Shown here piece by piece: positions 10,498 to 39,659 of a stretch of 39,659 nucleotides of DNA. Each line of letters starts with the position of its first letter. Within the stretch, counting starts at the first letter, position 1. This DNA comes from Candidatus Kerfeldbacteria bacterium (GTDB taxonomy: Bacteria > Patescibacteriota > Patescibacteriia > SBBC01). The stretch is taken from the NCBI GenBank assembly GCA_016204585.1, contig JACQKH010000045.1:1-39659 (forward strand), written 5' to 3'. The position numbers were made by a program, and so were the translations under genes. Below the pieces are notes generated by a model that saw only the letters and a list, made by a program, of their open reading frames with translations, searched no databases and had not been told where the DNA came from.

Positions 10498-10506
10498 GAG
10501 TGGGTG

Positions 10507-10575
10507 AGCTTGTAGCTTTTAGCTGATAGGTGGCAGCAAAAAATTGAGCCGCTAAAAGCTAACAGCTACCAGCTA
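10507..10575. repeat. Heptamer-periodic inverted repeat (TAGC/GCTA family)
   Basis: AGCTTGT-AGCTTTT-AGCTGAT-AG ... GCTAAAA-GCTAACA-GCTACCA-GCTAG between lemA and htpX. Confidence 0.8.
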
Positions 10576-19254: not shown

Positions 19255-19262
19255 TAGCCACC

Positions 19263-22200
19263 ATGAGAAGAAAGTTAGTAGAACCCATCTCAAAATTCCA
19301 TTCCGGCTCTGCGGAGCGGAATTTCGGGCTGCGGGACTTCGTCTCGGATTCGAAATATCACGGATATTCCTCATCCTCCGACTCGTCCCTCGCCACGAAA
19401 TTCCGCCCCTCGGCTCGAAAGCGAATTTTGAGATGGGTTCTAATCATTTCAGCGGCGTTTAATCTCAAGGTTCTGAAAAGCTTCATGCTGGTTGTGATGG
19501 CTGGAGCGATTTTTGTCACCATTCCCTCCAGCAGCCGGGCCAGCAATTTCGTCAAGGTCGGCTCGCCGTTCAGCGCGCCGATCAACCTCTACGGCGTGAC
19601 CACGCTCTACGACCGGGCGGAGAAAACTTACAAGGCCTGGGCGGTTGGCGGTCTGGTCTTCACCGATCCCGCTACCGGAACGGAAACCACAACTACGGCA
19701 GTCATGATGTACTTCAATGGTTCGTATTGGGCAAAGGTGCCGATTCCCCCCGTCGGCCGGCCGCTACGGTCGGTTTCCGTTATCCAGTATTTAAGAACAA
19801 TTGACTCGGCCGGAAACAGACTTACCCAGCCGAAATGGGCGCTTTCCGGCTGGGCCGTAGGCGATAAAGTGCCGGATCCCGACAACCCAGGCATGTATAT
19901 CGGCGCGACCATTTTAAAGCTCGATCCGGACGTAAACGCCACTAATCCGCTGGCCTTCAACTCCTGGACCAAGCAGCGAAAGATTAAACCGCCTTCATCG
20001 CTGGCTGGTAAACCGTGTCCCGAAGACTTTGTTGAAAATCTGACCCTGTGCACCAACTGGACCGAGAACAATCTCAAGGCCGTGGCCGCGGTTAACGATC
20101 GCTTGGCCGTGGCCGTCGGCGAGGCCGGCACGGTGCTGCACTATGATTTGTCGTTCGATAAGTCTATTTACACTTCGCCGTCGTACGATACAACTGTTGA
20201 GTATTGGAATTCGCAATCAGGATTTGCTCCAACCGACACCATCAACGCGGTAACCTTCCTGGACGAAGCTCATGGCTGGCTGGCTGGAGCTAACACTAGT
20301 GTCAACGAAGGCCGGGTTTGGAAGTACACCAAACAAAGCAATCAGTACGACACGATGGGATCATTAAATATTCCGGACATTATTTACACAAGCATTGCAG
20401 CCACCCTTCGTCCTTCGCTGACGTCGGGAGACCCCTTAAAAAGCGTATTGTGGCTAGGTACAACCTTTAGCGCTATCCCGTCCTACGGCCTCATCCGTTT
20501 CGATGAGAAACTTAATCGACTTTCTTCTACTTACGGGACCGGCGCTCCGGTTAGCGGCATAAGTTTGACCAGGCGCGCCGGCGGCCAGGATCAGAACCTC
20601 CTCCAGAACGGTTCATTCAACGCCGACCGGAAAGACGAGAGCGTCAGTAAGCGCATTCCGGACGGCTGGGAACTCAGCAGTCCGTATTACGGCGGGTCAA
20701 CGAATTTTACTTCGCCGCTGAATCTCCAATCAGCAAATCTAGTTGATCGAGTGTCGGGCAATCCGGCCTATGTTGGCGAGTCGGCCCAGTCAGTGACCAA
20801 GACTGACGGCGTAACTGCTAGAACGCTCGTGATCCACCACTCAGGACTCGCCGATTATTTCAATGCCTTTTCAAACAATTTTCCAAACGATACCTATGCG
20901 AGTTTTTCGAGTGGATCAACGCCTGTCAGTTTGCAGATGGAAGATGCGACAACTCCGCTCATGTCAACGCTAGTTCCTGGCCAGGGTGATTATTTCTCAC
21001 TCCCTACCCACGCCAACAGCAACGGATACGTTGGTCCGCCGGTTCAGGTCGGCCTATCCATCAACGGATTTTTGCGTATTCCCGGTGTGGAGTCATCCGA
21101 TCGGCAGTACGAGTTTAAAATCGAGCATCCGAAGGGCTGGGTGAATTTCGATATTGAGAATGATGTCAGCGGCGACACGCTGGTCTGCCACGGCGGCAGT
21201 AATCACGGCGCAGCGTGCACCAGTTTGTCCGATCCGTCCTGCACCAGCGGCGGCGGCGTCTGCAGCCCGAGCTCCCAGTATCCGGCTAACAGCGCTGATC
21301 CGGTAACTGACAATTCTCTGATTGCTTGGAACCCGGGAATTTGCCAGAATGATCCGTTGATCCCTACCAGAATTTGCGTGGGGGGAAGTAACGAAGGCGA
21401 AGTCTGTGATGATCCGACTGACTGCTTGGACGGCGGGACCTGCTTCCCGAGCACGCAAAAGGTTCAGTGCTTCAACAACGACGAGTGTAACATCGGCCGG
21501 TGCTTTGAACCGAACTACTACAATAGTAATGATAATAATATATACAGCGTGGGGCCAATTCGCTGCACGAATGATGAAACATGCCAAAGCGTATATGGCA
21601 ACAATGCCAGTTGCGTGCCGTTTAATTCCCCCCCGAATTGCGTAGACGCTCCGTCAACGGGAGAATCAACCTCTAAGCCAATTGAGTTCAGGCAAGGAGA
21701 CGGGTTTAAAGCCCGCGTCTGCGACGGTGGTGCTAATAGCGGGCGGTCGTGCGTAGACAGTTCACAATGCCCCGGCTCAGCGTGCGGGCTGAAGGGACTG
21801 GGGTGGTTTCCGTTTACTCTCCGTTATTTTCAGCCGTGGAAAAGGGCTTGCTCGGGGAGCCCAATGATGCGTTGTTATGACAACTCTGATTGTGTCGCGC
21901 CGGCAATCTGTGAGAATACGGATTTGAGCTACTACTATGAAGGGCAATGCACCAAGAAAGACGGAACAGTGACTGGAACATGTTCCAGCAATGTCAATGA
22001 TGCAAATGGCATTAGCCCCTGTGGTTACGAAAACGACGCGTACGGAAATCCCACCGTCAAGATCAACTGTCAGAATATACGGACTAAACCTGACCGCTCG
22101 AGCTTGAAGGTGTCCTACCGTGAAGTTGGCGCGCCGACTTGGAATCCCGTGCAAGATTCCGACCTGCTGGTGTCGGCCAACCCTAACTTCGTTCCGGGCG

Positions 22201-25112
22201 AAACAGATCGCGCCTCGATTGTCCAGGAAGTTCCATTTACCACGCTGCCGGGCACGAGTTTTTCCGTCAGCGGTAAATACAAAATCGAATTTCCGAACGA
22301 CTTTCTACCAGCCACCGCTTCGCCCAGCGATCCCCGGCAGCCGAAGTCTCCGCAAGCCGGCATCCGCGTCCGTTGCACGAACGGGACGAACGACGCCTGC
22401 GGTTACGACGTACAAACCTTCCAAGCTAACTCGGCGATTGGCGTGAGCGGCCCCGGGACGTCTTGCCGACGTCCGGACGGAACGACCTACGGCCGGAGTT
22501 GCACCACCAACGCCCAATGCGACGGTGGTGACACGTGTGTTGGACAATGGGTTGATTTTTCCGCCACCGTCACCAAGCAGAATCGTAACGCCGGTACCGG
22601 TCTGCGCACGGCCGACGATCCGAGCCAGGGCTTGGTCATTGAATGCTTTGCCGACTATGGGGCGCGCGTCGGTTGCGACGATATTACGGTGGTGCCGCTA
22701 AGCGAAGCGGCCCTCAGTGGCTTTGACCAGGTTGACGCCTGGGCCGTGGATGAGGGCGGCGCAGTCTATCAAAACACCCTGGATTTCAACAACTCCTTGC
22801 CCGACCCGGACCCTTGGAGAGTAGTCGTTCAACCATCGGCCGTACCCCTCCGCAGCGTGGCGGCGGCTGATTCCTATCATCTCTGGTCAGTGGGTGACAA
22901 GACTTCCGACGCGAACGCCACGATTCTTCGCTTAAGCCCGGGAAACGTCAGCGGTTGGGCGTGGATCGGCGCTTCCAGCTCGGCCTCGTCCGGCGACGCG
23001 CTCGGCTGGATTGATTTCAACTGCGGCAACCTCCAGTCATGCGTGAAACAACCCTCTAACTTTGGGGTAAACGTCGAGCTGACCGGCGACGAGGCTGGCC
23101 GGATTGCCGGCAGCGCCTGGCAAGGCACCGAGGATCCGAATGACGTCATAGATTACGGCCCATGCATTGGTGGCGACGGTTCTCCGACAACTAGTCCTTC
23201 TTGCGACGTGGTGTGTTCGAATAACAGTTTGCGCCTTTGCTCGAACAGCAGTCAGTGTGAGGGTACTTGCAGTAAAAACCAGGGATTTAGGTGTAGCACG
23301 GACGCCGACTGCCAGGTTAGCTGCGCTGCCAATCCGGTGGCCTGCCGGTCAATCGGCTGGTTGTCATTCGATAAAAAGGTAACCGGCACTCCGCCTGAAC
23401 TGCCGTACAACACTGCTTATGACCCGGATGATCGTAGCACATACTATACCGCCAAGTTTGACAACGTTACAGACAAAATTGACGGTTGGGCGCGCTTTGA
23501 ACTCGGCCAATGCAGCGTCTCAAAGCAGTCATGCTTCCAGTCAACTTCCTGCCCATTACGCCAGAGCTGCGAATGGTCAGGCGCAGCGTCGGTGCCTGGA
23601 CAGATTCCGGCCGCTGAAGCGAACGCCAAAGCCGGTTGGGTTAAGCTGCGCGGCGATGATAATCCGTCATCTCCGGTGACCGGCGACTTTTTCGGTTGTC
23701 AGGATTGTACTGAGATTGTGGGTGGAACTACTCCTGGGTATTGCGGTACTACCTCAACTGAGTGCGGTATTGACCTTGATTGTCTAGATGCTGGATATAC
23801 CGGCCCGGATGCACAATGCTTAAAGACATGCAAGATTTGCACCAAGTACTCTAGCGGAGCCGTGGCTACTGATTATCCGGCGTGCAATTCCTGCTCGCGG
23901 TGCACCCTCAAACGATGCAAGACCCAGAACGCAAATCAACGATGCACAGGGGACTATCAATGTAACGACATCGCCGGCGATTGCCAGAAGTACGGCATCA
24001 CTGACGACGGAACGGGAAATATCTGTTTCGGCGATCTGGCGGACGGCACCAAGTGCGTTATCGGGGCGCAGTGTATTTCCTGTAACAGCTGCAGCAAGTA
24101 CGGCGTGTCACTAGATGTCGGCGATACCAAGAATTTCAGCGGCTTCGCCTGGAGTCCGGACCTCGGCTGGATTGACTTCAGCCTGGTGACGCTCGGCGGG
24201 CAAGCGTTTTTCCAAACGAAATTCGGCGACATCTACGCTGGCGGCGATATTGGCAGCACGGCCACCGGCCTCCCGCCCGGCTACCCGGGTGGTTCAGCCC
24301 AATGCAACGCCACTTACCGGATCGTGTCAGCCGGCACCATCACCAACTTCTGCTCGGCCGCGCCGGGCGGGCTGGCCAGTCCCTTTATCGAACCGGGGGC
24401 GCAGCTCTTTCCGTTGCCGGTTCCCGAAAACCGATTCACCGCCAGGATCGGCTCGCTCGACATTGAAGGTTTGACCGCCGTGGCGAAAACGGTTGGCAGC
24501 AAGAACTTCAACAAGTACGGGGACGAGGTGGTGGACGTACCGGACGGAGAGGAACTCTCCCACGTTTGCGACGGAGCGGTAACGGCCGGTCGCTGCGATA
24601 ATAACGATTCCAAGCTGCTCGGGAAGGTTTATCATGTCAAAGGAGATTTCGTTATTGATCGTGACTTTTCGTTCAACGCCGGAGTGAGCTCGGTCGAGAG
24701 CGGAGCAGGCACTTTCGTGATTGACGGCGTGCTACGCGTGCAGGGAAATACTTCCTATCCACCGGCCGGTGCGTTGATTCAAAACCGGCGGCAGCTCCCG
24801 TCAGCCGGATTTTTCGTGCTCGGTCCTGGCGGTATTACGGTCGAACCGAATGTTTCCAAAATGGTCGGTGCCTACTACGCCAACGGTCAAATCACGGTCA
24901 ATTCCAGCGGGTCAGGCGGAGACAATCAATTGGTGGTCAGCGGTCTGATGGTCGCAAAAACCTTCGGTTTCCAGCGGACCTTCCGGGGTATCTCCGGTGA
25001 GCAACAACCGGCCGAACAAGTGATCTACGACGGTCGCCTGACGGTCAACACGCCGCCGGGCTTCTCGCAGCTGGCGCAGGGTTTGCCGAACTTGCAAGAA
25101 GTTGTGCCGTGA
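19263..25112 (+). CDS. Giant multidomain Cys-rich secreted surface protein (~1950 aa)
   Basis: Probable ATG at 19263. Propeller-like WAVG repeats, CBM-like NLLQNGSF, PA14-like segments, CxGGxNxGxxC repeats, GWAW/GWIDF repeats, beta-rich C-terminal domain. Confidence 0.8.
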   Translation: MRRKLVEPISKFHSGSAERNFGLRDFVSDSKYHGYSSSSDSSLATKFRPSARKRILRWVLIISAAFNLKVLKSFMLVVMAGAIFVTIPSSSRASNFVKVGSPFSAPINLYGVTTLYDRAEKTYKAWAVGGLVFTDPATGTETTTTAVMMYFNGSYWAKVPIPPVGRPLRSVSVIQYLRTIDSAGNRLTQPKWALSGWAVGDKVPDPDNPGMYIGATILKLDPDVNATNPLAFNSWTKQRKIKPPSSLAGKPCPEDFVENLTLCTNWTENNLKAVAAVNDRLAVAVGEAGTVLHYDLSFDKSIYTSPSYDTTVEYWNSQSGFAPTDTINAVTFLDEAHGWLAGANTSVNEGRVWKYTKQSNQYDTMGSLNIPDIIYTSIAATLRPSLTSGDPLKSVLWLGTTFSAIPSYGLIRFDEKLNRLSSTYGTGAPVSGISLTRRAGGQDQNLLQNGSFNADRKDESVSKRIPDGWELSSPYYGGSTNFTSPLNLQSANLVDRVSGNPAYVGESAQSVTKTDGVTARTLVIHHSGLADYFNAFSNNFPNDTYASFSSGSTPVSLQMEDATTPLMSTLVPGQGDYFSLPTHANSNGYVGPPVQVGLSINGFLRIPGVESSDRQYEFKIEHPKGWVNFDIENDVSGDTLVCHGGSNHGAACTSLSDPSCTSGGGVCSPSSQYPANSADPVTDNSLIAWNPGICQNDPLIPTRICVGGSNEGEVCDDPTDCLDGGTCFPSTQKVQCFNNDECNIGRCFEPNYYNSNDNNIYSVGPIRCTNDETCQSVYGNNASCVPFNSPPNCVDAPSTGESTSKPIEFRQGDGFKARVCDGGANSGRSCVDSSQCPGSACGLKGLGWFPFTLRYFQPWKRACSGSPMMRCYDNSDCVAPAICENTDLSYYYEGQCTKKDGTVTGTCSSNVNDANGISPCGYENDAYGNPTVKINCQNIRTKPDRSSLKVSYREVGAPTWNPVQDSDLLVSANPNFVPGETDRASIVQEVPFTTLPGTSFSVSGKYKIEFPNDFLPATASPSDPRQPKSPQAGIRVRCTNGTNDACGYDVQTFQANSAIGVSGPGTSCRRPDGTTYGRSCTTNAQCDGGDTCVGQWVDFSATVTKQNRNAGTGLRTADDPSQGLVIECFADYGARVGCDDITVVPLSEAALSGFDQVDAWAVDEGGAVYQNTLDFNNSLPDPDPWRVVVQPSAVPLRSVAAADSYHLWSVGDKTSDANATILRLSPGNVSGWAWIGASSSASSGDALGWIDFNCGNLQSCVKQPSNFGVNVELTGDEAGRIAGSAWQGTEDPNDVIDYGPCIGGDGSPTTSPSCDVVCSNNSLRLCSNSSQCEGTCSKNQGFRCSTDADCQVSCAANPVACRSIGWLSFDKKVTGTPPELPYNTAYDPDDRSTYYTAKFDNVTDKIDGWARFELGQCSVSKQSCFQSTSCPLRQSCEWSGAASVPGQIPAAEANAKAGWVKLRGDDNPSSPVTGDFFGCQDCTEIVGGTTPGYCGTTSTECGIDLDCLDAGYTGPDAQCLKTCKICTKYSSGAVATDYPACNSCSRCTLKRCKTQNANQRCTGDYQCNDIAGDCQKYGITDDGTGNICFGDLADGTKCVIGAQCISCNSCSKYGVSLDVGDTKNFSGFAWSPDLGWIDFSLVTLGGQAFFQTKFGDIYAGGDIGSTATGLPPGYPGGSAQCNATYRIVSAGTITNFCSAAPGGLASPFIEPGAQLFPLPVPENRFTARIGSLDIEGLTAVAKTVGSKNFNKYGDEVVDVPDGEELSHVCDGAVTAGRCDNNDSKLLGKVYHVKGDFVIDRDFSFNAGVSSVESGAGTFVIDGVLRVQGNTSYPPAGALIQNRRQLPSAGFFVLGPGGITVEPNVSKMVGAYYANGQITVNSSGSGGDNQLVVSGLMVAKTFGFQRTFRGISGEQQPAEQVIYDGRLTVNTPPGFSQLAQGLPNLQEVVP
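19279..19442. mobile_element. 164-bp MITE-like hairpin element inserted in frame
   Basis: Perfect 20-bp terminal inverted repeats TAGAACCCATCTCAAAATTC / GAATTTTGAGATGGGTTCTA, internal stems, TA at both ends. Confidence 0.85.
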
Positions 25113-25114
25113 GG

Positions 25115-25178
25115 CTGACTCTTGACATTTGACCATTGACTTTTGACGGTCAAATGTCACATGTCAAAAGTCAAATGT
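25115..25178. repeat. Heptamer-periodic inverted repeat (TGAC/GTCA family)
   Basis: TGAC at 25116, 25123, 25130, 25137 and 25144, followed by GTCAAAT-GTCACAT-GTCAAAA-GTCAAAT. Confidence 0.85.
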
Positions 25179-30876: not shown

Positions 30877-31950
30877 GTGTCGACCAGCGAATCCATCATC
30901 ATCCAGCGGATCCTGACGACGGCCGCCGAGTATCGGGCCAGCGACCTGCACCTGACCACCGGTAATCCGCCCATTCTCCGCGTTGACGGGAAGTTGGTCA
31001 TCCTCGAGCAGGAGCAAATGGTGACCCCGGACTTCATGGACGTCGTGAAAGAGATGTTCCTGACACCCGAGCAACAGGCGGTCCTCAAACAAGATCGCGA
31101 GATCACCGTCGCCTACACCCTGGAAAACCGCATCCGATTCAAGGTTTCGATGTTTTTCCAGCGCGGTTACTTGGCCGCCAGTTTGCGTTTGATATCGAAC
31201 GAAATTAAACCCCTCCGCGAACTAGGACTGCCGCCGATCGTCCAGGAATTTACCAAGCTGACCAAAGGCCTGCTCCTAATCACCGGGCCTTTTGGCTCGG
31301 GTCGCACGGCCACGGTCGCGGCCGTCGTCAATGAAATCAACAAAACCAGGTCAGCTCACGTCATCACTATCGAAAAACCGATCGAACACGTCTATGTGAA
31401 CGATCGGAGTTTCATCGAGCAGCGCGAGGTCGGTCGAGACACCAAGTCGTTTGAGCAGGCGCTGGAGACCGCCATCCGCGAGGATGTGGACGTGATTGTG
31501 GTGTCAGAAATGGTTGAGCCGCCGGTCATCCAAGCGGTCCTGACCGCGGCCGAGTCTTCACGATTGGTGATTTCCACGATGAATACCGATTCGGTGATGA
31601 AAACAGTTGAAAGCATCATTAACAGCGCGCCAGCCGACCTCGAGGTAAAGACCCGGCAACAGCTGGCCGGGACGCTCCAGGGCATTGTCAGCCAGCGTCT
31701 ATTGCCGCGGGTCGGCGGCGGTCGGATTCTGGTGGCCGAGGTGATGGCGCCGTCTCCGCCGATCCGGGCGGTCATCCGCGACGGGGCGCTCTTCCAGCTG
31801 CAGAATATTCTCCAAACGAGCCGAGAGAGCGGGACTATTTCCCTTGATCGTTCCCTGGCCGAGCTCGTTAAGACCGGCGAAATCTTAGTGGACGATGCGC
31901 TCGTTTACGCCGTTGATCCCAATAATCTTAAGATGTGGACGCGATCCTAA
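30877..31950 (+). CDS. pilT: PilT/PilU-family retraction ATPase homologue with degenerate catalytic motifs
   Basis: ASDLHL..G.PP.LRVDG, QREVG.DT.SF, SQRLLP; but GPFGSGRT, TIEKPIE, VIVVSEM and STMNT. Confidence 0.85.
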   Translation: MSTSESIIIQRILTTAAEYRASDLHLTTGNPPILRVDGKLVILEQEQMVTPDFMDVVKEMFLTPEQQAVLKQDREITVAYTLENRIRFKVSMFFQRGYLAASLRLISNEIKPLRELGLPPIVQEFTKLTKGLLLITGPFGSGRTATVAAVVNEINKTRSAHVITIEKPIEHVYVNDRSFIEQREVGRDTKSFEQALETAIREDVDVIVVSEMVEPPVIQAVLTAAESSRLVISTMNTDSVMKTVESIINSAPADLEVKTRQQLAGTLQGIVSQRLLPRVGGGRILVAEVMAPSPPIRAVIRDGALFQLQNILQTSRESGTISLDRSLAELVKTGEILVDDALVYAVDPNNLKMWTRS

Positions 31951-31951
31951 G

Positions 31952-32024
31952 AAGCTTATAGCTTCATTAGCTTCGTTAGCTTGTTAGGGCGTTCTAAAAA
32001 GCTAATGAAGCTAGCGAAGCTAAC
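31952..32024. repeat. 7-9-nt periodic inverted repeat (TAGC/GCTA family)
   Basis: AGCTTAT-AGCTTCATT-AGCTTCGTT-AGCTTGTTAG ... CTAAAAAG-CTAATGAAG-CTAGCGAAG-CTAAC between pilT and pilC. Confidence 0.8.
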
Positions 32025-32035
32025 TATCTGCTCCA

Positions 32036-33247
32036 ATGGCCATTTTCGACTACAAGGCGAAGGATTTGAGCGGTCAGTCAATCAGCGGCGCGGTCGAAGC
32101 GCCGAGCGAAGCGGTGGCCCTCGACGTGCTGAAAGAAAAGGAGCTATTTGTTCTGTCCCTCAAGGAACGAAAGCGCATCACCCTCTTTCAATCCTCACTT
32201 GGCTTCCTCCAGCGCGTTCCGCGCAAGGACGTGGTGCTGTTTGCGCGGCAGCTGGCCGTGATGATCTCGGCCACGGTGCCGATCGTCCAAGCCCTCCGCA
32301 TCCTGGTCAGGCAGACCGAAAACGTCAACTTCAAGATTATTATTTCCGAGATCGCCGACGAGGTGGACGGCGGAGCGAAGCTGTCCGCCACGTTGGCCCG
32401 CTACCCGAGCGTTTTTTCTCAGTTCTTCGTGCACATGATCCGCTCCGGCGAAACGACCGGCAAACTGGACGAGACGTTGAACTACTTGGCCGATCAGCAG
32501 GAGAAGGATTACGACCTGATTTCGAAAATTCGCGGGGCCATGATCTACCCGGCCTTCGTGCTCGGCGGCATTCTGGTGGTCGGCGCGGCCATGATGATTT
32601 TCGTCATTCCCAACCTGACCAACATTCTGCAGGAAGGCGGCGGCGAGCTGCCGGCCAGCACTAAAGCGGTCATCGCCACCTCGAATTTTTTCAAGCATCA
32701 GTGGTGGGTTCTCCTGATCGTCCTGGTGACTATTCCGGTCCTCCTCCGATTCGCCATAAAAACTGAGGTTGGCCGTCATCAGTTCGATCGCCTGAAGTTC
32801 CGGATGCCGATCTTTGGGCAGATTTTCCAGAAGATTTATCTGGTCCGGTTTTCGCGCTCGCTCTCGACGCTGGTGGTTTCCGGCATTCCGGTGACGCGCG
32901 GCTTGGAAATCGTGGCTGACGTCGTGGGCAACACCGTCTATCACGACCTGACCCGGGAATCAATAACCGAGATCGAGGCCGGCAACTCGATTGCCACCGC
33001 CTTCGTTAAATCCAAGGACATCCCGCCGATGCTGCCGCAAATGATGGTGGTCGGCGAGCAGACCGGAAAGCTCGACCTTATCCTCGACAAACTGGCGAAC
33101 TTCTACGCCAAAGAGCTGGAAAACATGATTGCCAACCTGACCAGCCTGATCGAGCCGTTGATCCTGGTGATCATGGGCGTCGGTGTGGCCGTGATGGTTA
33201 TGGCCATCTTATTGCCGATGTACAACCTGTCGCAGGCGATAACGTAG
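32036..33247 (+). CDS. pilC: Type IV pilus platform protein PilC (GspF family)
   Basis: FARQLAVMI, GETTGKLD, AMIYP, GEQTGKLD, LIEP, ILLPMY. Confidence 0.95.
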   Translation: MAIFDYKAKDLSGQSISGAVEAPSEAVALDVLKEKELFVLSLKERKRITLFQSSLGFLQRVPRKDVVLFARQLAVMISATVPIVQALRILVRQTENVNFKIIISEIADEVDGGAKLSATLARYPSVFSQFFVHMIRSGETTGKLDETLNYLADQQEKDYDLISKIRGAMIYPAFVLGGILVVGAAMMIFVIPNLTNILQEGGGELPASTKAVIATSNFFKHQWWVLLIVLVTIPVLLRFAIKTEVGRHQFDRLKFRMPIFGQIFQKIYLVRFSRSLSTLVVSGIPVTRGLEIVADVVGNTVYHDLTRESITEIEAGNSIATAFVKSKDIPPMLPQMMVVGEQTGKLDLILDKLANFYAKELENMIANLTSLIEPLILVIMGVGVAVMVMAILLPMYNLSQAIT

Positions 33248-33255
33248 GTAGGCAG

Positions 33256-33281
33256 TTAGGTATTAGGTTTTAGGTGTTAGG
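33256..33281 (+). repeat. Solo heptamer arm (TAGG family)
   Basis: TTAGGTA-TTAGGTT-TTAGGTG-TTAGG just after the pilC stop. Confidence 0.75.
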
Positions 33282-33303
33282 GGGTTGTGAGGGAGTGGAT
33301 GAG

Positions 33304-33380
33304 TAGGTAGGCGGCATCCGCTAACTCCCCTCCACATCAGTGGAGGGGTGGCGACGCCCGTGGCGGAGCCGGGGTGGGTT
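33304..33380 (+). repeat. REP-like double-hairpin element, copy 1
   Basis: TAGGTAGGCGGC...CTAACTCCCCTCC-N8-GGAGGGG...GGGGTGG; related to copies at 34160-34220 (inverted) and 34218-34295 (direct). Confidence 0.7.
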
Positions 33381-33407
33381 GCGAAACCTCGAAAATCGTG
33401 CTATACT
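33379..33407 (+). promoter_or_regulatory. pilA promoter
   Basis: TTGCGA, N17, TATACT with a TG extended -10; SD-like AAGGGGGTGA before the ATG. Confidence 0.7.
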
Positions 33408-33577
33408 ACACTAAGATTCAGCCTGTGGACAATTCTCACGGCTGTAAAAAACTCGTTCGTTCTTGATACTTAAGCCATTCCGAGTAAAAGCTTGTCTTCG
33501 TTCAAGAGATTCAGCAGGCCTGCATCCGTTGAACGAAACGATTCTCGGAAAAAACCGAAAGGGGGTGACGAAACAAC

Positions 33578-34096
33578 ATGAATAATGCAAAGAAAGGGTT
33601 TACGCTCATCGAGCTCTTGGTGGTCATCGCGATCATCGGCATTTTGTCAACCATCGGTCTCGTCGCCCTGAACGGGGCGCGGGCTAAGGCCCGGGACGCG
33701 CGGCGCACCGCTGACATGCGATCCTACGCTTTGGCTTATACCAGTTATGCGGATACGGCGACGTCATTCGATACTGGCGTTGGTTGTGCACCTGAAACTA
33801 ACATCAGTGCTTGTGGAGCATTGCAAACGGCCGCCTCCTCCACGTCTTTACCAAATGATCCGACTACAGGAGCGGCAGCCGCCACAAACTCTAATGCAGC
33901 TTGTGTTGCTGCTGATAAAAATAATCCAGCTTGTAATGCCCTCGCTAACTGGGCAAGGACTGGTGGGGCGTATGCAAACTACACACTTGCATTCGAAGAT
34001 GTTAACGCGTTCTCTATCCTTCTGGAACTAGAAACGGCCGGTACCTGGGGAGCTGCGGGGTTGCATTTGTACCAGCAATCCGGCACCTTCCTGTAA
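33578..34096 (+). CDS. pilA: Major type IV pilin (prepilin)
   Basis: KKG|[28 protein letters not shown]; own promoter, SD and terminator. Confidence 0.9.
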
Positions 34097-34112
34097 TTCG
34101 CGCTTGGTATTT

Positions 34113-34149
34113 GGAAACAAAAAAGGGCTCTGGCCCTTTTTTGTTTTCC
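34113..34149 (+). terminator. Intrinsic terminator (potentially bidirectional)
   Basis: ACAAAAAAGGGC-TCTG-GCCCTTTTTTGT after pilA. Confidence 0.85.
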
Positions 34150-34159
34150 TTTGATGTTG

Positions 34160-34295
34160 AACCACCCCCACCGCGACCTACGTCGCGGTGACCCCTCCAT
34201 GAGATGGAGGGGAGAGTTAGGTAGGCGGCTACCGCCACTTCTCCTCCTTGCAAAGGAGGAGTACCCGTCGCGTTACACGCGACGGGGGAGGTGGT
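34160..34295. repeat. Two oppositely oriented REP-like double-hairpin elements
   Basis: CACCGCGAC-CTAC-GTCGCGGTG with CCCCTCCAT-GAG-ATGGAGGGG; CTCCTCCTT-GCA-AAGGAGGAG with CCCGTCGCGT-TAC-ACGCGACGGG. Confidence 0.75.
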
Positions 34296-34387
34296 CAATC
34301 AACGCCGCCCGCCGCTTCCTTGACCTAGGCGACCATTCCAGTTTACACTGCCTACACATTCGGTGGTGACGAAAAAGGACTTAACTT

Positions 34388-34687
34388 ATGTCAACAAAAC
34401 AACGCGGCGCAACCACGACCGACGTCAAAACGCTCGGGTCAAGATTAGAAGCGACGATCAAAAGGAACACGCGCGAGATTGTCGCGCACTTCAACGCCAG
34501 CCAGGGTGAGCAGAACAAATGGATAAAGGGTGAATTCGAAAAGGTTGACCAGCGTTTTGACGAAATACGCGTCGAACTAGAAGCGATTAAAGAAATGTTG
34601 GCCATGAAACAAGAACTGCGTAATCTCGTGCGCGAACTGAAGGCCAAAGGCATCGAGCTCGACGAGTCGCGGATTTTCGCGCGGTAG
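34388..34687 (+). CDS. Small coiled-coil hypothetical protein
   Basis: 99 aa, AAGGA SD, FEKVDQRFDEI heptads; upstream TTGACC-N18-TACACT (34320-34349). Confidence 0.7.
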   Translation: MSTKQRGATTTDVKTLGSRLEATIKRNTREIVAHFNASQGEQNKWIKGEFEKVDQRFDEIRVELEAIKEMLAMKQELRNLVRELKAKGIELDESRIFAR

Positions 34688-34694
34688 ATTAGGC

Positions 34695-34721
34695 AGCTTC
34701 CTAGCTTCATTAGCTTGTTAG
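34695..34721 (+). repeat. Solo periodic arm (TAGC family)
   Basis: AGCTTCCT-AGCTTCATT-AGCTTGTT-AG after the stop codon. Confidence 0.7.
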
Positions 34722-34754
34722 AGGGCGGAGGAGCATTTGTGATATACTGGATTT

Positions 34755-35174
34755 ATGTTTATCCCTGACCGCCGCGGTCTCGGCCTTATCTCCACCCTCC
34801 TGATTCTCACGGTGGTGGCTGCGTTTTTGGCCGGGGTGGGGTTATTGTTGAGCCAGGAGCGGGCGCGGGTGCGGGACGCCCGGCGCATCGCCGACATGGT
34901 GCGGGTGCAGTTTGCCTTTGAAACGTTGTTCCGCGAAAAGGCCAGTTATAGCGAGGCGGCGTCCGGGTGCGGACAGGTTGAAGTTTTGGTTTCAACGTGT
35001 GCGTTGACCACCTACCTGCCGCAGGTTCAGAATTTGAAAGATCCGGGGAGGTACGCCTACCGAGTTGCCAAAGTGCCGGATGAGAGGGATTACGCTATCA
35101 GCTTTGTGCTGGAGCGGGCGTACGAGAGCTTGGCCAAGGGGAAACACGTGTTGAGCAAGGATGGGGTTCGGTAG
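34755..35174 (+). CDS. Pilin-like protein with non-canonical N-terminus
   Basis: RRG|LGLISTLL hydrophobic helix without E5; RARVRDARRIADM, C..C, DP, Y.ISFVLE, paralleling pilA. Confidence 0.75.
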   Translation: MFIPDRRGLGLISTLLILTVVAAFLAGVGLLLSQERARVRDARRIADMVRVQFAFETLFREKASYSEAASGCGQVEVLVSTCALTTYLPQVQNLKDPGRYAYRVAKVPDERDYAISFVLERAYESLAKGKHVLSKDGVR

Positions 35175-35178
35175 GAGC

Positions 35179-35203
35179 TAGGTTTTAGGTATTAGGTTTT
35201 AGG
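35179..35203 (+). repeat. Solo heptamer arm (TAGG family)
   Basis: TAGGTTT-TAGGTAT-TAGGTTT-TAGG after the stop codon. Confidence 0.75.
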
Positions 35204-35242
35204 TTGTTTGAAGCATAGTCCGGCGCGAGAATCCGCAACGGT

Positions 35243-35801
35243 TGTAGCCCGCCCATTTATGGGCCTAGCACGAACAAGCCGTGATTGAACCATGCGTGGG
35301 TTGAAACCTGTCAGATTGCCGCAGTACGATTACCGAACCGACGGTTATTATTTTGTGACGGTTGTTTCAAGAAACAGAAAAAATATCTTTCAGAATTCCG
35401 AAAATATCATCGAGGAAGAGCTGGAGAACGTAGCAAAACAAATCCAGGGGTTGTCCGTGGATACAAAAATTGTCATGCCGAACCATGTTCATCTGATTTT
35501 AGTTTTAGAGAATTGTGCATTACCGCTGGGGGAGATTATCAGAAGGTGGAAAGCAAAAGTATCCCATTCATTAGGTTACTCTGTTTGGCAGCCGAATTAT
35601 TACGAACACGTTATTCGAGACGAGGAAGCATTGAACCGAATACGCGAATACGTCATTTATAATCCGGAGCTTGAGATTTTAAAATTCGAACAGTTCTATC
35701 CACGCGATGCCGATAAATCGGCGGGCTACAAAAAGATGCCGACCCCGCCCGCCGAAGTCCCGCATGGCGGGACGGGGCGGGTGAATCGGTGGGCTACATG
35801 A
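35243..35801 (+). mobile_element. RAYT element with flanking REP-like inverted repeats
   Basis: TGTAGCCCGCCCATTTATGGGC (35243-35264) and inverted GCCGATAAATCGGCGGGCTACA (35709-35730); third interrupted copy at 35738-35798. Confidence 0.8.
35292..35801 (+). CDS. REP-associated tyrosine transposase (Y1/IS200-like, RAYT)
   Basis: RLPQYDY, YFVTV, MPNHVHLI (HUH), WQPNYYEHVIRD, YVIYNP. Confidence 0.9.
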   Translation: MRGLKPVRLPQYDYRTDGYYFVTVVSRNRKNIFQNSENIIEEELENVAKQIQGLSVDTKIVMPNHVHLILVLENCALPLGEIIRRWKAKVSHSLGYSVWQPNYYEHVIRDEEALNRIREYVIYNPELEILKFEQFYPRDADKSAGYKKMPTPPAEVPHGGTGRVNRWAT

Positions 35802-36601
35802 ATATTGTCATCGGGGTTGTTGTTTTTGTTCTGGGAACCGCGATTGGCAGTTTTTTGAACGTGGTGATTTACCGTTTGCACGCGGGCGGCTCGCCGCTCC
35901 GCGGCCGGTCGCGTTGTCCGCACTGTAAACATCAGCTGGCTGCTGACGATCTGATACCGGTTCTTAGTTTTGTCATGCTGCGCCGGCGCTGTCGCTACTG
36001 CCATAAACCGATTTCTTGGCAGTACCCGCTAGTGGAGCTCAGTATGGGTTTAGTGGCGCTGACCATGATGCTCCGCTACGGACTGTCGGTTGAGTCATGG
36101 GTGGGAACGGTGCTGGGAGCGTTCCTCTTAGTGATTTTCGTTTATGATCTCCGTCACCAGTTAATCCTCGACCGGGTCAGCATTCCGGCCATGGTCGCGG
36201 CGTTGCTAGGTTCGCTTCTGCTTAAGCGACCGCTGACCGATATCGCCATCGGCGGCGTGGCTGGCGCCGCTTTTTTCTTTCTGCAGTACGTGTTCTCGAA
36301 CGGTCGCTGGATCGGCGGCGGCGACATCCGGCTAGGCGCCGTATTGGGGTTGGCCTTGGGCTGGAAGCTGCTGGCGGTCAGCTTGGTACTGGCGTATTTT
36401 GGCGGTTCAACCGTCGCTTTATTTCTAATCCTGACGAAGCGCCGATCATGGTCAAGCCAAATTCCGTTCGGCACGTTCTTGAGTTTGGCCGGCATCGTAA
36501 CTTTCTTGTGGGGTAACGAGATTCTGGTCTGGTACTTGCACGGCGGATTTTTCGATTGGTTCGTCGGCGCGTTCCTGCGGTTTTACAATCCGGCGGTCTG
36601 A
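35798..36601 (+). CDS. pilD: Prepilin peptidase/N-methyltransferase
   Basis: GSFLNVVIYRL, RSRCPHC, CRYC...ISWQYP, YD, GGGD, IPFG.FL. ATG at 35798. Confidence 0.95.
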   Translation: MNIVIGVVVFVLGTAIGSFLNVVIYRLHAGGSPLRGRSRCPHCKHQLAADDLIPVLSFVMLRRRCRYCHKPISWQYPLVELSMGLVALTMMLRYGLSVESWVGTVLGAFLLVIFVYDLRHQLILDRVSIPAMVAALLGSLLLKRPLTDIAIGGVAGAAFFFLQYVFSNGRWIGGGDIRLGAVLGLALGWKLLAVSLVLAYFGGSTVALFLILTKRRSWSSQIPFGTFLSLAGIVTFLWGNEILVWYLHGGFFDWFVGAFLRFYNPAV

Positions 36602-36610
36602 GGAGAAGAG

Positions 36611-37327
36611 TTGGCAGATTGGAGATTGGAGTCGGGAGTTGACGGTTGTCGAATCACAGAGGAAAATAGGGTAGTGGATACTTCGTCAAATGTCAAAGGT
36701 CAAACGTCAAGAGTCAAATGTCGTTCTGGGTTCACCCTACTCGAACTCCTCATCAGCATGGCCATCTTTGCGATTCTCGGGACCTTCACGGTAATGAGTT
36801 TTCGCAGCGCGGGACAGTTGAATAATCTCCGGCAGGCCGCCAATGAGCTGGTGTCGAATCTCCGGCTGGCCCAGTCCATGTCACAGTCCGGGGCAACGGT
36901 GAATAGTTGTGACGATGGGGGTGAAAAATACAAACTCTGCCCTGACGCAACTTGTTCCATCTGTTCTGAGAAAGCGCCAAAAGGAGGGTATGGTATAAGC
37001 GGCGGTGGTCAATTTGGTGCGTGGTCATCGTTGCCGACGTCAAGGTATATGATATTTGCGGAGTTGTTGGGAGATGGGTATGATCTAAACGATGATCCAA
37101 CGATATTTACCGTTGATTTACCGGCTCAAACCTCCATTTCAATGGTAGATTCGAGCGTGATGGGATTGCATTTTCTCAAGGATGGTCACGCCTACGATTT
37201 TTTTGGCAATATAAGCAATCAATATTTTTGCATCTCTCACAGTAACTTTCCAAACGTGTATCGCAAAGTCACCCTCATCGGCGCCACCGGCCAGATTCAG
37301 GAGGAGGCGGTAGCAGCATGTCCGTAA
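36611..37327 (+). CDS. Minor pilin (FimT/GspH-like)
   Basis: G|FTLLELLISMAI, L..AANEL.SNLRLAQ..S, GYGI. Start uncertain (TTG 36611 with SD, or GTG 36674). Confidence 0.82.
   Translation: MADWRLESGVDGCRITEENRVVDTSSNVKGQTSRVKCRSGFTLLELLISMAIFAILGTFTVMSFRSAGQLNNLRQAANELVSNLRLAQSMSQSGATVNSCDDGGEKYKLCPDATCSICSEKAPKGGYGISGGGQFGAWSSLPTSRYMIFAELLGDGYDLNDDPTIFTVDLPAQTSISMVDSSVMGLHFLKDGHAYDFFGNISNQYFCISHSNFPNVYRKVTLIGATGQIQEEAVAACP
36685..36722 (+). repeat. Heptamer arm (GTCA family) inside a prepilin leader
   Basis: GTCAAAT-GTCAAAG-GTCAAAC-GTCAAGA-GTCAAAT-GTC, translated as SNVKGQTSRVKC. Confidence 0.8.
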
Positions 37328-38091
37328 AACATCAAGCTGATCTTCCCAAAGGGCAGGGCCTGCTCGAGACCGTCATCGGCATCGGCGTGATTATCGCCGG
37401 TACAATCGGCAGCGTTACTCTGATCGCGGCAACGGTTACGGCCGGTCGCGCCACCAACAACAAAGTTATCGCCGCCAGCTTGGCGCGTGAAGGGATCGAG
37501 GCGGTTCGCAACATCCGCGATGCGAATTGGCTACGAATTCAGGCGAACGAGGATACGGACTTAAGCATAGCTGACATTCAGCTTCCCAGCTCGTTTGACG
37601 GGTTGTACGATCAGACCAGCAATTACCACGTCGCGGTCCCCGGGTTCAGCTGGGCCGGTAACAGTTGGACCGTTGGCTCGGTACCGGATCCAGCCATGGA
37701 CTTTAATGACACGAACAGTTTTACGACGAAGATGTGTGGAAAGGTTGGGACTCAGCCGCATGTCTGTTCGGAGATTTACCAGGAGGTAGCGACACAAGCA
37801 TTTTATCAGACCGACAAAGGTTTTTCCGCAAGCGTTCCGCCGGCCACACGATTCAAGCGTTTAGTGAATGTCAATCCGATTTGCCGGGAAGACGATGCGC
37901 CAGCCGATGGCATACCGGACGTCGGCTTTAACGCAGCGGAGAGGATTGAAGCGCTGAACGGTTCTACTTGCAGTGCCACTGAGATTCTCGTCGGCCTCCA
38001 GGTTATTAGCAAGGTCTGTTGGGACGACTGCACTGCTCAGAAAACCTTTCAACTTGAAGACCGGCTGTATAATTGGAAATACGTGAAATGA
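37318..38091 (+). CDS. Minor pilin (PilV-like)
   Basis: KG|QGLLETVIGI, A..LAREGIEAVRNIRD.NW, FKR.V, V.SKV.W, LYNWK. Confidence 0.82.
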   Translation: MSVKHQADLPKGQGLLETVIGIGVIIAGTIGSVTLIAATVTAGRATNNKVIAASLAREGIEAVRNIRDANWLRIQANEDTDLSIADIQLPSSFDGLYDQTSNYHVAVPGFSWAGNSWTVGSVPDPAMDFNDTNSFTTKMCGKVGTQPHVCSEIYQEVATQAFYQTDKGFSASVPPATRFKRLVNVNPICREDDAPADGIPDVGFNAAERIEALNGSTCSATEILVGLQVISKVCWDDCTAQKTFQLEDRLYNWKYVK

Positions 38092-38098
38092 GGTGGGT

Positions 38099-38551
38099 AG
38101 GTTTTAGGTAATAGGTTTTAGGAGTTAGTTTTTCTGGGAGTATGAGTATGCTATCAAATTCGTATAAAGAACTTACGGTATGGCAGAAGTCAATGGAGTT
38201 GGTAACTGCCGTTTACAAATTGACTGAACAGTTTCCGAAAGAGGAGTTATATGGATTGACATCCCAGCTAAGGAGATCGGCGGTTTCCATTCCATCAAAT
38301 ATCGCGGAGGGAAAATACCGAGGAAGTAAAAAAGACTATGTACAATTTCTCAGAATAGCATTTTCTTCCGGTGCTGAACTGGAAACACAAATCGAAATCG
38401 CTAAACGACTTCCATCAACAAAAAATTTGGGTTTTATTGACATTGAAGCAACCCTTGAGGAAGTTATGAAAATGCTGAATGCCTTAATTAAGAAACTGAT
38501 TCAATAGCAACGATATAGTTCTTAACACCTAAAACCTAACACCTAAAACCT
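38099..38551. repeat. Heptamer-periodic inverted repeat (TAGG/CCTA family) enclosing the four-helix-bundle gene
   Basis: Left arm AGGTTTTAGGTAATAGGTTTTAGGAGTTAG (38099-38128); right arm CTTAACACCTAAAACCTAACACCTAAAACCT (38521-38551). Confidence 0.85.
38142..38507 (+). CDS. Four-helix-bundle protein (23S rRNA IVP-like family)
   Basis: SYKELTVWQKSM.L...VY.LT..FPKEE.YGLTSQLRRSAVSIPSNIAEG..R....Y.QFL.IA..S..ELETQ; AT-rich DNA. Confidence 0.93.
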   Translation: MSMLSNSYKELTVWQKSMELVTAVYKLTEQFPKEELYGLTSQLRRSAVSIPSNIAEGKYRGSKKDYVQFLRIAFSSGAELETQIEIAKRLPSTKNLGFIDIEATLEEVMKMLNALIKKLIQ

Positions 38552-39426
38552 TGTCTTTTCATCCGATAGTTCAGAATCATAGACTACGTTTATCAACACG
38601 CAACCCACACGGTTTTACATTACTCGAAATCATCGTGGCCACGGCGATTTTAAGCATGGCCACATTAATCGCCACCGGCCTGTTCGTCGCGGTCACTAGC
38701 TCTCAGAAGAAAGTCGAGTCTTTGTCTAAGGTCCAGAGCGACGCCAGATTCTTAATCGAGTCAATCGCCCAGTCCGTCCGTCTCGCCGGCCTGGACTACT
38801 CGTACTATTTGAACCTTGACGGAGATCCGAATACGCGTGATCCGGTTGATCTTTCTGGCGGTTTGCTTTCGATGTCCGCGGTGACGACTGACACAGCCCA
38901 GGTGGTGACCAAGGACGCCAGCGGCCAAACGTTTTTCAGTCGCTACATGAGAGGAAAGTTTGGCGAAGAAGATCGTTATGCCATTGGCGTCTGTACCCGC
39001 ACACCCGCTCAATTCGCCAGCGACCCCCTGCGCTGTGCGTACCCGACGCTGGCCCCAGAAGACTACCAGGATGTTACCCCGACGAACATCACGGTTGACG
39101 CCTTCAATGTTTGGGTCAGCCCAGGTTCAGATCCAAATGCTTTAGCCCCGAGCGGCACCGCCGACTGCTGGACTAATATAAATGCTGATCCGACGCAAGT
39201 TCCACCCGTCTTTGGTTTTGACTCAATAAATTCAAATTGTACATGTACGGATGCTAGCACGGATTGCTGGTCAGGACAGACCTGTGACCGGGGGATTTGC
39301 TTGAATACTAATCAGCAGCCGAAAGTGACGATTGTCATTTCCTCGAGAGGTGGCGGCAGCCGTCAAGCAGAGCAAGCCACCCAGACTCTTCAGACCACCG
39401 TGTCGGCCAGGATTTATAAGCGGTAA
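38551..39426 (+). CDS. Minor pilin (PilW/GspJ-like) with Cys-rich insert
   Basis: G|FTLLEIIVATAI, R..IE.I...VR, QPKVTI.I, LQTTVS.R.Y. Only a TTG start is available after the in-frame TAA at 38530. Confidence 0.82.
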   Translation: MSFHPIVQNHRLRLSTRNPHGFTLLEIIVATAILSMATLIATGLFVAVTSSQKKVESLSKVQSDARFLIESIAQSVRLAGLDYSYYLNLDGDPNTRDPVDLSGGLLSMSAVTTDTAQVVTKDASGQTFFSRYMRGKFGEEDRYAIGVCTRTPAQFASDPLRCAYPTLAPEDYQDVTPTNITVDAFNVWVSPGSDPNALAPSGTADCWTNINADPTQVPPVFGFDSINSNCTCTDASTDCWSGQTCDRGICLNTNQQPKVTIVISSRGGGSRQAEQATQTLQTTVSARIYKR

Positions 39427-39433
39427 CATTGAC

Positions 39434-39659
39434 ATGATGCCATCCAGACGCCATCGCCGACAGAATGAACAGGGAGTGGCCTTGCTGCTGGCTCTTTTGC
39501 TGGTGGCGGCGTTGACGGCGGCCGGCATCGGCGCCTCGACCCTAATCGTCAAGGAGTTCAAGACTACGGCCAGCACTGACCAGGGCATCGCCGCCTATTA
39601 CGCGGCCGACGCCGGGGTCGAACGCGCGTTGTTCACGGTCTTTAACAACCGCATTGCCG
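39434..39659 (+). CDS. PilX-like minor pilin, truncated by window end
   Basis: Own translation: MMPSRRHRRQNEQG|VALLLALLLVAALTAAGIG...AYYAADAGVERAL. Confidence 0.8.
   Translation, partial: MMPSRRHRRQNEQGVALLLALLLVAALTAAGIGASTLIVKEFKTTASTDQGIAAYYAADAGVERALFTVFNNRIA

Follow-up and report, generated by a model that had tools for sequence, protein, structure and literature searches.

What is an AT-rich gene for a four-helix-bundle protein doing in the middle of a type IV pilus operon, and why is it bracketed by two inverted runs of heptanucleotides? This question is raised by a stretch of 39,659 nucleotides (nt) from a Candidatus Kerfeldbacteria bacterium (contig JACQKH010000045.1 of assembly GCA_016204585.1), here called the window, which is contig C14 of a 91%-complete assembly of 1.04 Mb in 80 contigs with a GC content of 0.55 (genome G000). 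The answer that we favour, and that we hold with rather more confidence than doubt, is that positions 38092-38551 of the window represent a complete cassette of the intervening sequence (IVS) type situated in an operon for mRNA, consisting of a gene of the PF05635 family, which has a ribosome-binding site of its own but for which no promoter was detected, and of the inverted 7-nt arrays that bracket it. By analogy, this cassette is probably part of a pairing of protein and repeat that resembles the one known for REPINs and RAYTs.

The open reading frame (ORF) at 38142-38507 on the forward strand is intact and encodes 121 residues. It matches PF05635 (23S_rRNA_IVP) with an E value of 8.8e-39 (132.4 bits versus a cut-off of 33.8), and it also scores above the cut-offs of TIGR02436, 'four helix bundle protein' (130.7 bits versus 24), and NF008911 (151.2 versus 137). 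All conserved PF05635 columns of an alignment of 20 relatives are present in the window protein (W14, Y25, E35, Q42, R45, S49, N53, E56, S76 and E79, as well as the SNIAEG motif). The GC content of the ORF is 0.38, whereas that of the window is 0.546 and that of the two flanking genes 0.53-0.54; an earlier reading of this locus, made from the sequence only, had correctly described an AT-rich four-helix-bundle gene. The spacer in front of the gene (38128-38141) contains a Shine-Dalgarno-like GGGAG (38136-38140), as read from the sequence. Because this motif ends only 1 nt upstream of the ATG at 38142, translation may actually begin at the ATG at 38148, which would give a protein of 119 residues. 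Neither a sigma-70-like promoter nor a terminator was detected in the region 38000-38600, profile searches revealed no transposase gene inside the cassette and no Y1_Tnp match for the window protein, and a PADLOC search gave no match. The nearest solved homologues of the window protein are 2gsc_A (E value of 1.3e-38) and 2rld_A (1.1e-11). Each of these two entries holds five chains, and by homology to them the window protein is predicted to be a homopentamer of four-helix bundles. The PF05635 family comprises 22,709 representative clusters at E values of at most 1e-3 among 1.84 billion representatives; to our knowledge, there are two solved structures and no known function for this family.

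The gene is enclosed by two arms of 29 nt each (38099-38127 and 38523-38551, forward strand), which were delimited by an inverted-repeat search. They are 90% complementary, lie 395 nt apart and are each a run of 7-nt units, in agreement with the inverted arms of about 30 bp that had been noted in the sequence-only reading. The upstream arm is G-rich and C-poor, with the units AGGTTTT, AGGTAAT, AGGTTTT and AGGAGTT, and the C-rich downstream arm (TAACACCTAAAACC twice, plus a T) has the units AACACCT/AAAACCT, the complement of the upstream ones. The cassette with its arms takes up the entire spacer between two pilus genes (37318-38091 and 38551-39426): according to the ORF list, it starts 1 nt after the TGA stop codon (38089-38091) of the upstream gene, and the TTG start codon that is listed for the downstream gene begins with base 38551, which is also the final base of the downstream arm. 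When the cassette was folded computationally as RNA, pairing of the two arms was predicted in the centroid as well as in the minimum-energy structure (-128 kcal/mol, z of -3.1). In the window as a whole, AGGTTTTAGGT with at most one mismatch has 10 matches, as opposed to 0.35 expected, and none of 100 shuffles reached 10. The two neighbours of the cassette had both been taken for minor pilins. This stands for the gene at 38551-39426, which carries the N-terminal methylation motif PF07963, as does the ORF at 36611-37327. It does not stand in the same way for 37318-38091, the direct upstream neighbour, which has no Pfam match and owes the label 'minor pilin' to its context and hydrophobic N-terminus only.

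The architecture of the window cassette recurs throughout the PF05635 family. A set of 30 loci taken from 40 relatives was combined with 80 loci drawn from a wide range of phyla, and 109 family genes and 183 control ORFs of at least 120 residues from the same loci were scored for the best ungapped inverted match between the 130 nt upstream and the 130 nt downstream of the gene. Scores of at least 12 were obtained for 56 of the 109 PF05635 genes versus 6 of the 183 controls, and scores of at least 14 for 48 versus 3. Periodic arms are thus enriched around family members, as had been surmised from the window alone. Within the window genome, all three strong PF05635 genes are armed, each with a unit of its own, which is GAATTAY (7 nt) on contig C64 and TTAGCTCG-like (8 nt) on contig C4. 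Among the 56 armed cassettes, 38 have arms with a period of 7 nt, 12 have a period of 8 nt and 6 have another period, and the sequence of the unit varies among copies. Armed PF05635 genes are carried by Planctomycetota, Acidobacteriota, Clostridia, Bacteroidota, Gamma- and Zetaproteobacteria, Elusimicrobiota and Patescibacteria. Inverted arms were found at 16 of 32 PF05635 loci on viral contigs and at 17 of 29 gammaproteobacterial loci, the latter from a sample of 201 genomes, 39 of which have a PF05635 gene (one locus from an unpublished genome was excluded).

One of these loci connects the window cassette to ribosomal RNA. In a gammaproteobacterial genome of 1.7 Mb, locus L296 (G081:C9:19331-22651) has a PF05635 pseudogene with one TGA and one TAG inside a 23S rRNA gene (Rfam large-subunit rRNA match 277-2799), and its arms are built of heptamer units. 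L296 is a classical IVS and, because its heptamer arms match those of the Coxiella IVS (Warrier 2016), the rRNA IVS and the window element share one design. A conserved 23S motif gave no match in the context of the first 197 loci, and none of the PF05635 matches of the 40 relatives overlapped the 23S matches of these genomes. An IVS of rRNA resides in helix 25 or 45 of the 23S molecule. The window cassette itself lies outside a 23S rRNA gene, being flanked by protein-coding pilus genes, and no 23S gene is assembled in the window genome. The inverted-arm architecture, in which the G-rich arm precedes the gene, is a rule of the PF05635 family across phyla, including its member in 23S rRNA.

This architecture has a fixed polarity and a tight spacing. 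On the sense strand, the arm 5' of the gene contains more G than C in 48 of the 56 cassettes. Both neighbouring genes are co-oriented with the PF05635 gene at 76 of 101 loci, and both have the opposite orientation at 7 of the 101. In 50 cassettes, the upstream stop codon and the first array are separated by a median of 1 nt, this array and the start of the gene by 11.5 nt, the stop of the gene and the second array by 2.5 nt, and the second array and the next start by 6 nt. With medians of 4.6 units in the upstream arm and 4.5 in the downstream arm, the count of four to five units per arm made in the window extends to the family. A TAG is present within the consensus unit of 27 of the 50 cassettes, and stop codons in all three frames in 22.

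The units of a cassette are also dispersed over the genome in which it resides. The window genome contains 55 arrays with periods of 6-9 nt, 34 of them with a period of 7, whereas shuffled sequence contains none. Outside the three cassettes, 14 of 39 arrays with a period of 7 or 8 match the genome's own cassette units, whereas three randomly chosen foreign units were matched by 1.7 arrays on average and none of 2000 draws reached 14. Own units likewise exceeded foreign ones in the relatives G033 (12 of 15 arrays; 5 and 4 with foreign units), G032 (6 of 14; 3 and 0) and G030 (4 of 6; 3 and 0), and in these three genomes whole families of geneless hairpins use the units of the resident cassette. 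An unbiased sample of 2.05 Mb contained 14 inverted pairs of arrays with the same unit, including 10 short geneless hairpins and 1 filled one. When the pairs with the G-rich array first that enclose at least 100 nt were considered, in a set that is biased by the choice of loci, all of them enclosed a PF05635 gene (33 by profile and 3 with a longer other frame). According to crude gene calls, the G-rich arrays of the window genome all lie within -6 to +12 nt of the upstream stop codon (10 of 10), and the C-rich arrays are mixed in this respect.

Genomes with and without a PF05635 gene appear to differ in their arrays. Of 22 relatives, for each of which 20-180 kb was compared, the 11 PF05635-negative ones, from six families, have 2 arrays with a period of 7 or 8 in 794 kb, and the 11 positive ones have 58 in 829 kb; these genomes are kin and not independent, and Y1 transposase genes co-vary with the PF05635 genes. 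Ten of the 11 negative relatives, including three low-GC genomes, are free of arrays, and arrays are present in 9 of the 11 positive ones. Furthermore, the similarity of the arms rises with the identity of the proteins (1 of 2000 permutations reached the observed correlation), and an identical unit recurs across phyla at a protein identity of about 50%.

Is the gene gained and lost together with its arms? The pilus operon is syntenic within the family of the window genome, and three of its junctions vary. The junction between the two pilin genes (38092-38550) is occupied in the window genome by the PF05635 cassette with AGGTTTT arms, in G003 by a cassette with TTAGCTTC-type arms and one TAG in its gene, and in G005 by a cassette with similar arms and one TAA in its gene. 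In G006 this junction is empty, with a spacer of 45 nt that has no arms, and in G002 the contig ends there. Upstream of pilC (31951-32035), the window genome has a geneless hairpin; in G003, this junction holds a decayed PF05635 gene with AGGTTTT-type arms, which shares 76.7% identity with the window protein across 60 residues. Conversely, the arms of the geneless hairpin (31953-32024) are nearly those of the pilin/pilin PF05635 gene of G003, with 34 of 36 and 29 of 31 positions identical. At the junction before the prepilin peptidase gene, the window genome has a solo AGGTNTT array plus a RAYT-like gene, G003 has the solo array only, G005 has a GIY-YIG gene between direct repeats, and G002 and G006 each have a PF05635 cassette with other arms. 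The sequence-only reading had proposed that filled and empty forms of one element exist side by side, and the orthologous junctions support this. In addition, contig C4 of G033 carries two copies of a cassette, 39 kb apart and in opposite orientation, that are 98% identical over 401 nt. Their identity starts in the upstream arm and stops in the downstream arm, their flanks are unrelated, and no target-site duplication is visible at their ends. Gene plus arms is a discrete unit of DNA, the parts of which are duplicated, gained or lost together.

How such a unit may be accommodated in an operon can be pictured as follows. The arms would pair in the operon transcript, so that the cassette is looped out and the upstream stop codon is brought beside the downstream start; we propose that the insertion is tolerated inside operons for this reason. 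By analogy to the Coxiella IVS, the stem of about 30 bp would be a likely substrate of RNase III, which is encoded by the window genome (PF14622, E value of 4.9e-39). The pentameric protein may recognise its own unit on a single strand, with one unit per subunit. Protein and repeat would then form a pair of the REPIN/RAYT kind, in which the geneless hairpins are either non-autonomous relatives or landing pads. The arrays might also mediate copying between sites, through recombination or gene conversion of arrays with like units or through a step that is assisted by the protein. A separate observation concerns RNase III itself: at loci L002 (G000:C4:13705-16968), L007 (G001) and L009 (G004), the downstream arm of a PF05635 cassette is followed immediately by the start of the RNase III gene. 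Since all three loci are one orthologous slot in one family, they count as a single event. The autoregulation of rnc could be influenced by a long stem in its leader.

Among known systems, the rRNA IVS is the closest relative of the window element by descent, and the two differ in habitat. Like the 23S rRNA IVS with an S23p ORF of Leptospira and Coxiella, the window element belongs to the PF05635 family, has a comparable length (453 nt versus 428-444 nt), and displays its ORF in the loop of a stem of about 28-29 bp, formed by terminal inverted repeats, with tandem heptamers 5' of the ORF. Unlike the 23S rRNA IVS, it has a protein-coding gene of a pilus operon on either side. For the Coxiella IVS, the accessible part of Warrier 2016 (PMC4990558) describes a terminal stem of 28 bp with 2-3 tandem GACAGAT heptamers 5' of the ORF, and cuts by RNase III within the stem in vitro. 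There, the heptamers figure as a strain-variable detail of one species and not as an architecture of the PF05635 family.

The closest functional analogy of the window element is the REPIN/RAYT pairing. As far as the available portion of Bertels and Rainey 2011 goes, both systems have a gene flanked by inverted short repeats that are also dispersed between genes as geneless inverted doublets and singletons, and both have a separate repeat family for each gene copy. Genomes without a RAYT gene lack the repeats, and most of the sampled genomes without a PF05635 gene appear to do so too. On the other hand, the RAYT is an HUH/Y1 transposase, whereas no catalytic site is known for the four-helix bundle of the PF05635 protein; REPIN repeats are single palindromes instead of tandem 7-8-nt arrays; and RAYT genes are single-copy and vertically inherited, whereas PF05635 genes are multi-copy, often decayed and patchy. 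Because the PF05635 protein is not a Y1 transposase, the likeness is one of how the two systems may work, and not of membership.

Heptamer repeats without a known gene have been described as well. In the parts of these papers that were accessible, TAACTGA is reported for Beggiatoaceae, Cyanobacteria and Bacteroidetes (PMC4679880), and GGGAATC for Xanthomonas, with 70-75 convergent pairs, and GGGGAYT for Nostoc (PMC4692102). Like the arrays studied here, these are intergenic tandem heptamers located near starts and stops, where a Shine-Dalgarno sequence is often missing, and some arm units of PF05635 cassettes are akin to them (GTCAGTA/GTCAGTT, GGGAATA/GGGAGTA and TTAACTG). We found no mention of a four-helix-bundle gene in the accessible text of either paper, the supplementary lists of which, with the genes adjacent to the repeats, could bear on this link. 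Nor did we find a published link between the PF05635 family and heptamer arrays in general, in a search to which supplements and most subscription journals were external and which is thus not proof of absence.

The window protein shares its homologous fold family with bAvd, an accessory protein of diversity-generating retroelements (DGRs) which, according to the accessible text of a review (PMC10053308), is a pentamer of four-helix bundles that binds nucleic acid. In contrast to bAvd, the window protein scores below the Avd cut-offs (NF033474, 27.4 versus 80; PF22296, 25.2 versus 40) and has no reverse transcriptase gene next to it. A reverse transcriptase gene does occur elsewhere in the window genome, at C40:7623-8777 (PF00078, E value of 1.5e-22, minus strand), beside a weak PF05635 match (E value of 1.2e-6, open frame of 211 residues) without arms; the two probably belong to a DGR that has an Avd-like protein of its own. 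Lastly, in contrast to a transposon or a miniature inverted-repeat transposable element, the cassette has no internal transposase, and there is no target-site duplication at the ends of the G033 copies.

Several observations speak against the view of the cassette as a mobile pair of protein and cognate repeat. About half of the PF05635 genes score below the inverted-repeat threshold. In the window genome, 25 of the 39 arrays have units without a cognate gene in the 91%-complete assembly. The coupling of gene and arrays among the relatives has exceptions, namely G020 (90 kb) and G018 (47 kb), which are PF05635-positive and array-free, and the PF05635-negative G034, which has 2 arrays; within the genus g11 to which G020 and G018 belong, the negative G015 has 0 arrays in 95 kb and the positive G014 has 4 in 180 kb. 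Y1 transposase genes and PF05635 genes occur together in 20 genomes, PF05635 only in 8, Y1 only in 2 and neither in 11, and because of this co-occurrence the general load of mobile elements is a confounder. The mismatches between the arms show no bias towards G:U wobble on the sense strand (59 versus 51, p-value of 0.50, plus 127 transversions), and the order of unit variants is mirrored between the arms beyond unit-order permutations in only 3 of 40 cassettes. As the complementarity of the arms is explained by both arms sharing one unit, a selection for exact base pairing is not demonstrated. The window protein has no recognisable catalytic domain, and therefore no mechanism of mobility is in hand. 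The duplicate in G033 could be the result of gene conversion rather than transposition. Finally, the sequencing runs that contain the stretch comprise four DNA runs, all from one groundwater metagenome study, and no RNA runs, and in these four DNA runs no contig of this organism was found that joins across the cassette. Junction-spanning DNA, which the sequence-only reading had proposed to look for, was hence not seen for this organism.

In these runs, the filled form of the cassette was seen in a contig covering 37539-39659. Joints were also observed at 38128->38523 and at 35205->38523/38528/38529 (runs X1-X4), but these have only 21-24 nt on their shorter side and other letters in between. 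We rejected the joints 38128->38523 and 35205->38523 as excisions of this cassette, and attribute them to geneless hairpins of other organisms or loci. Because contigs with a depth of up to 455 join such arms by 11-29 letters, geneless hairpins of the AGGTTTT type appear to be abundant in other members of the groundwater community.

Could the hairpins belong to the host instead? They would then be REP-like signals for mRNA or translation that arose by slippage, and PF05635 would be a separate selfish gene that lands in their loops, with the arms as its target. The excess of geneless over filled hairpins in the 2.05-Mb sample (10 versus 1 among the 14 inverted pairs) would fit this explanation, as would the 25 of 39 arrays without a cognate gene, one G033 copy with extra downstream-type units past the duplicated segment, the other small genes (RAYT-like, GIY-YIG) in the same slot of relatives, and the gene-free heptamer arrays that the accessible parts of PMC4692102 and PMC4679880 describe for Xanthomonas, Nostoc and Beggiatoaceae. 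We nevertheless regard it as unlikely. Arrays with a period of 7 or 8 are missing from 10 of the 11 PF05635-negative relatives, low-GC genomes among them, the empty orthologous junction of G006 has no arms, and the 98%-identical segment of the G033 copies includes the arms. Moreover, the orientation of the gene relative to the polarity of the arms is fixed in 48 of 56 cassettes, which is not expected from random landing in a symmetric hairpin, and the similarity of the proteins tracks the arm units. In a different explanation, the PF05635 protein would be a domesticated RNA-binding ring without any mobility, which recognises a short motif repeated at fixed spacing and, via the arrays, controls the translation or processing of its own mRNA and that of its neighbours. 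Comparable proteins are HutP, which recognises UAG triplets at a spacing of 4 nt, and TRAP, which recognises GAG/UAG repeats. The position of the arrays next to stops and starts (10 of 10 G-rich arrays of the window genome within -6 to +12 nt of the upstream stop), the co-orientation of cassettes with operons, the 4-5 units per arm in conjunction with pentameric homologues, and the TAG in the consensus unit of 27 of 50 cassettes are in line with such a regulator. It is nonetheless quite improbable in view of the patchy presence at orthologous junctions, the frequent pseudogenes (with stops in the G003 and G005 orthologues and in many matches in relatives), the recent G033 duplicate that is bounded by arms, the AT-rich composition foreign to the host, and the occurrence on viral contigs.

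The arrays and hairpins could also be moved by Y1 transposases (IS200/RAYT-like), with PF05635 genes as passengers. Indeed, the window has a RAYT-like gene 87 nt from a solo AGGTNTT array, and Y1 and PF05635 co-occur across the relatives (both in 20, neither in 11). However, only 1 of the 6 Y1 matches in the window genome adjoins an array, as compared to all 3 strong PF05635 genes; G025 has PF05635, no Y1 match and 7 arrays in 33 kb, whereas G011 has Y1, no PF05635 and 0 arrays in 60 kb; and the score of the RAYT-like gene (74.8 bits) is below the NCBIfam cut-off of 80. We therefore consider a leading role for Y1 transposases to be very improbable. Almost no credence can be given to the idea that the window gene encodes the Avd accessory protein of a DGR. 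This idea is prompted by a weak similarity to bAvd (PF22296, E value of 2.4e-5; NF033474, 3.2e-6) with scores that stay below the cut-offs, and the reverse transcriptase matches in the window genome are confined to contigs C19 and C40, the one on C40 having its own weakly Avd-like, arm-free neighbour.

The IVS-type cassette favoured here is one element of a larger setting. The pilus operon extends over 30877-39659 on the forward strand and includes genes for a PilT-like ATPase (30877-31950), PilC (32036-33247), the major pilin (33578-34096), which is followed by two small ORFs, and the prepilin peptidase (35789-36601), which is followed by several pilin-like genes. Gene-free hairpins and solo arms had been noticed at other junctions of the window, and we located three of each. 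The geneless hairpin at 31953-32024 (forward strand), between the PilT-like ATPase gene and pilC, was delimited by repeat and fold analysis; it has TAGCTTCNT-type units (TAGCTTCAT/TAGCTTCGT/TAGCTTGT), a loop of 5 nt and a folding energy of -38.5 kcal/mol (z of -4.8). The other features were found by an array scan. A hairpin with TAGCTTN/GCTAAMA units lies at about 10504-10575 between two minus-strand ORFs, and one with TTGACNT/GTCAAAN units at 25121-25175 (forward strand), just after the stop of an ORF of 1983 residues (19161-25112) upstream of the pilus genes. The solo arrays, all on the forward strand, comprise an AGGTNTT array 8 nt past the stop of pilC (33256-33281), a second one directly past the stop of 34755-35174 and upstream of the RAYT-like gene (35179-35205), and a GTCAAAN array of about 5 units (36685-36710). 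The latter falls within the 5' part of the pilin ORF 36611-37327 as listed and precedes the GFTLLE processing motif, so that either the true start of this ORF lies later or the array encodes the leader peptide.

The RAYT-like gene, likewise part of the pilus operon (35292-35801), has a GC content of 0.455 and overlaps the start of the prepilin peptidase gene; its matches are to REP_Tyr_transpos (E value of 6.3e-21) and PF01797 (4.9e-5). The major pilin gene is flanked by GC-rich multi-hairpin repeats at 33285-33375 and 34150-34300. These have CCTCC...GGAGG stems and a TAGGTAGGCGGC motif in common and represent a repeat family different from the heptamer arrays.

It is possible, though we advance this only tentatively and by analogy, that PF05635 pentamers and arrays of tandem units make up a widespread two-component system. 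This system would resemble that of RAYTs and REPINs, but with a non-enzymatic ring in which every subunit reads one 7-nt unit of a single strand. Each variant of the protein would have its own family of intergenic heptamer hairpins, which it would maintain, spread or regulate. If true, this would explain together the role of the ORF in rRNA intervening sequences and the orphan intergenic heptamers of Cyanobacteria, Bacteroidota, Xanthomonas, Beggiatoaceae and candidate-phyla bacteria. The PF05635 family is tied to these unexplained heptamer repeats by a fixed polarity, by units that track the protein and populate the genome, and by the apparent tendency of gene and arrays to be absent together among the relatives sampled. 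The rRNA 'intervening sequence' may accordingly be recast as one habitat of a general cassette that resides in transcribed spacers. For the annotation of these genomes, the hairpins mark operon junctions where small selfish genes, such as PF05635, RAYT-like and GIY-YIG genes, come and go.

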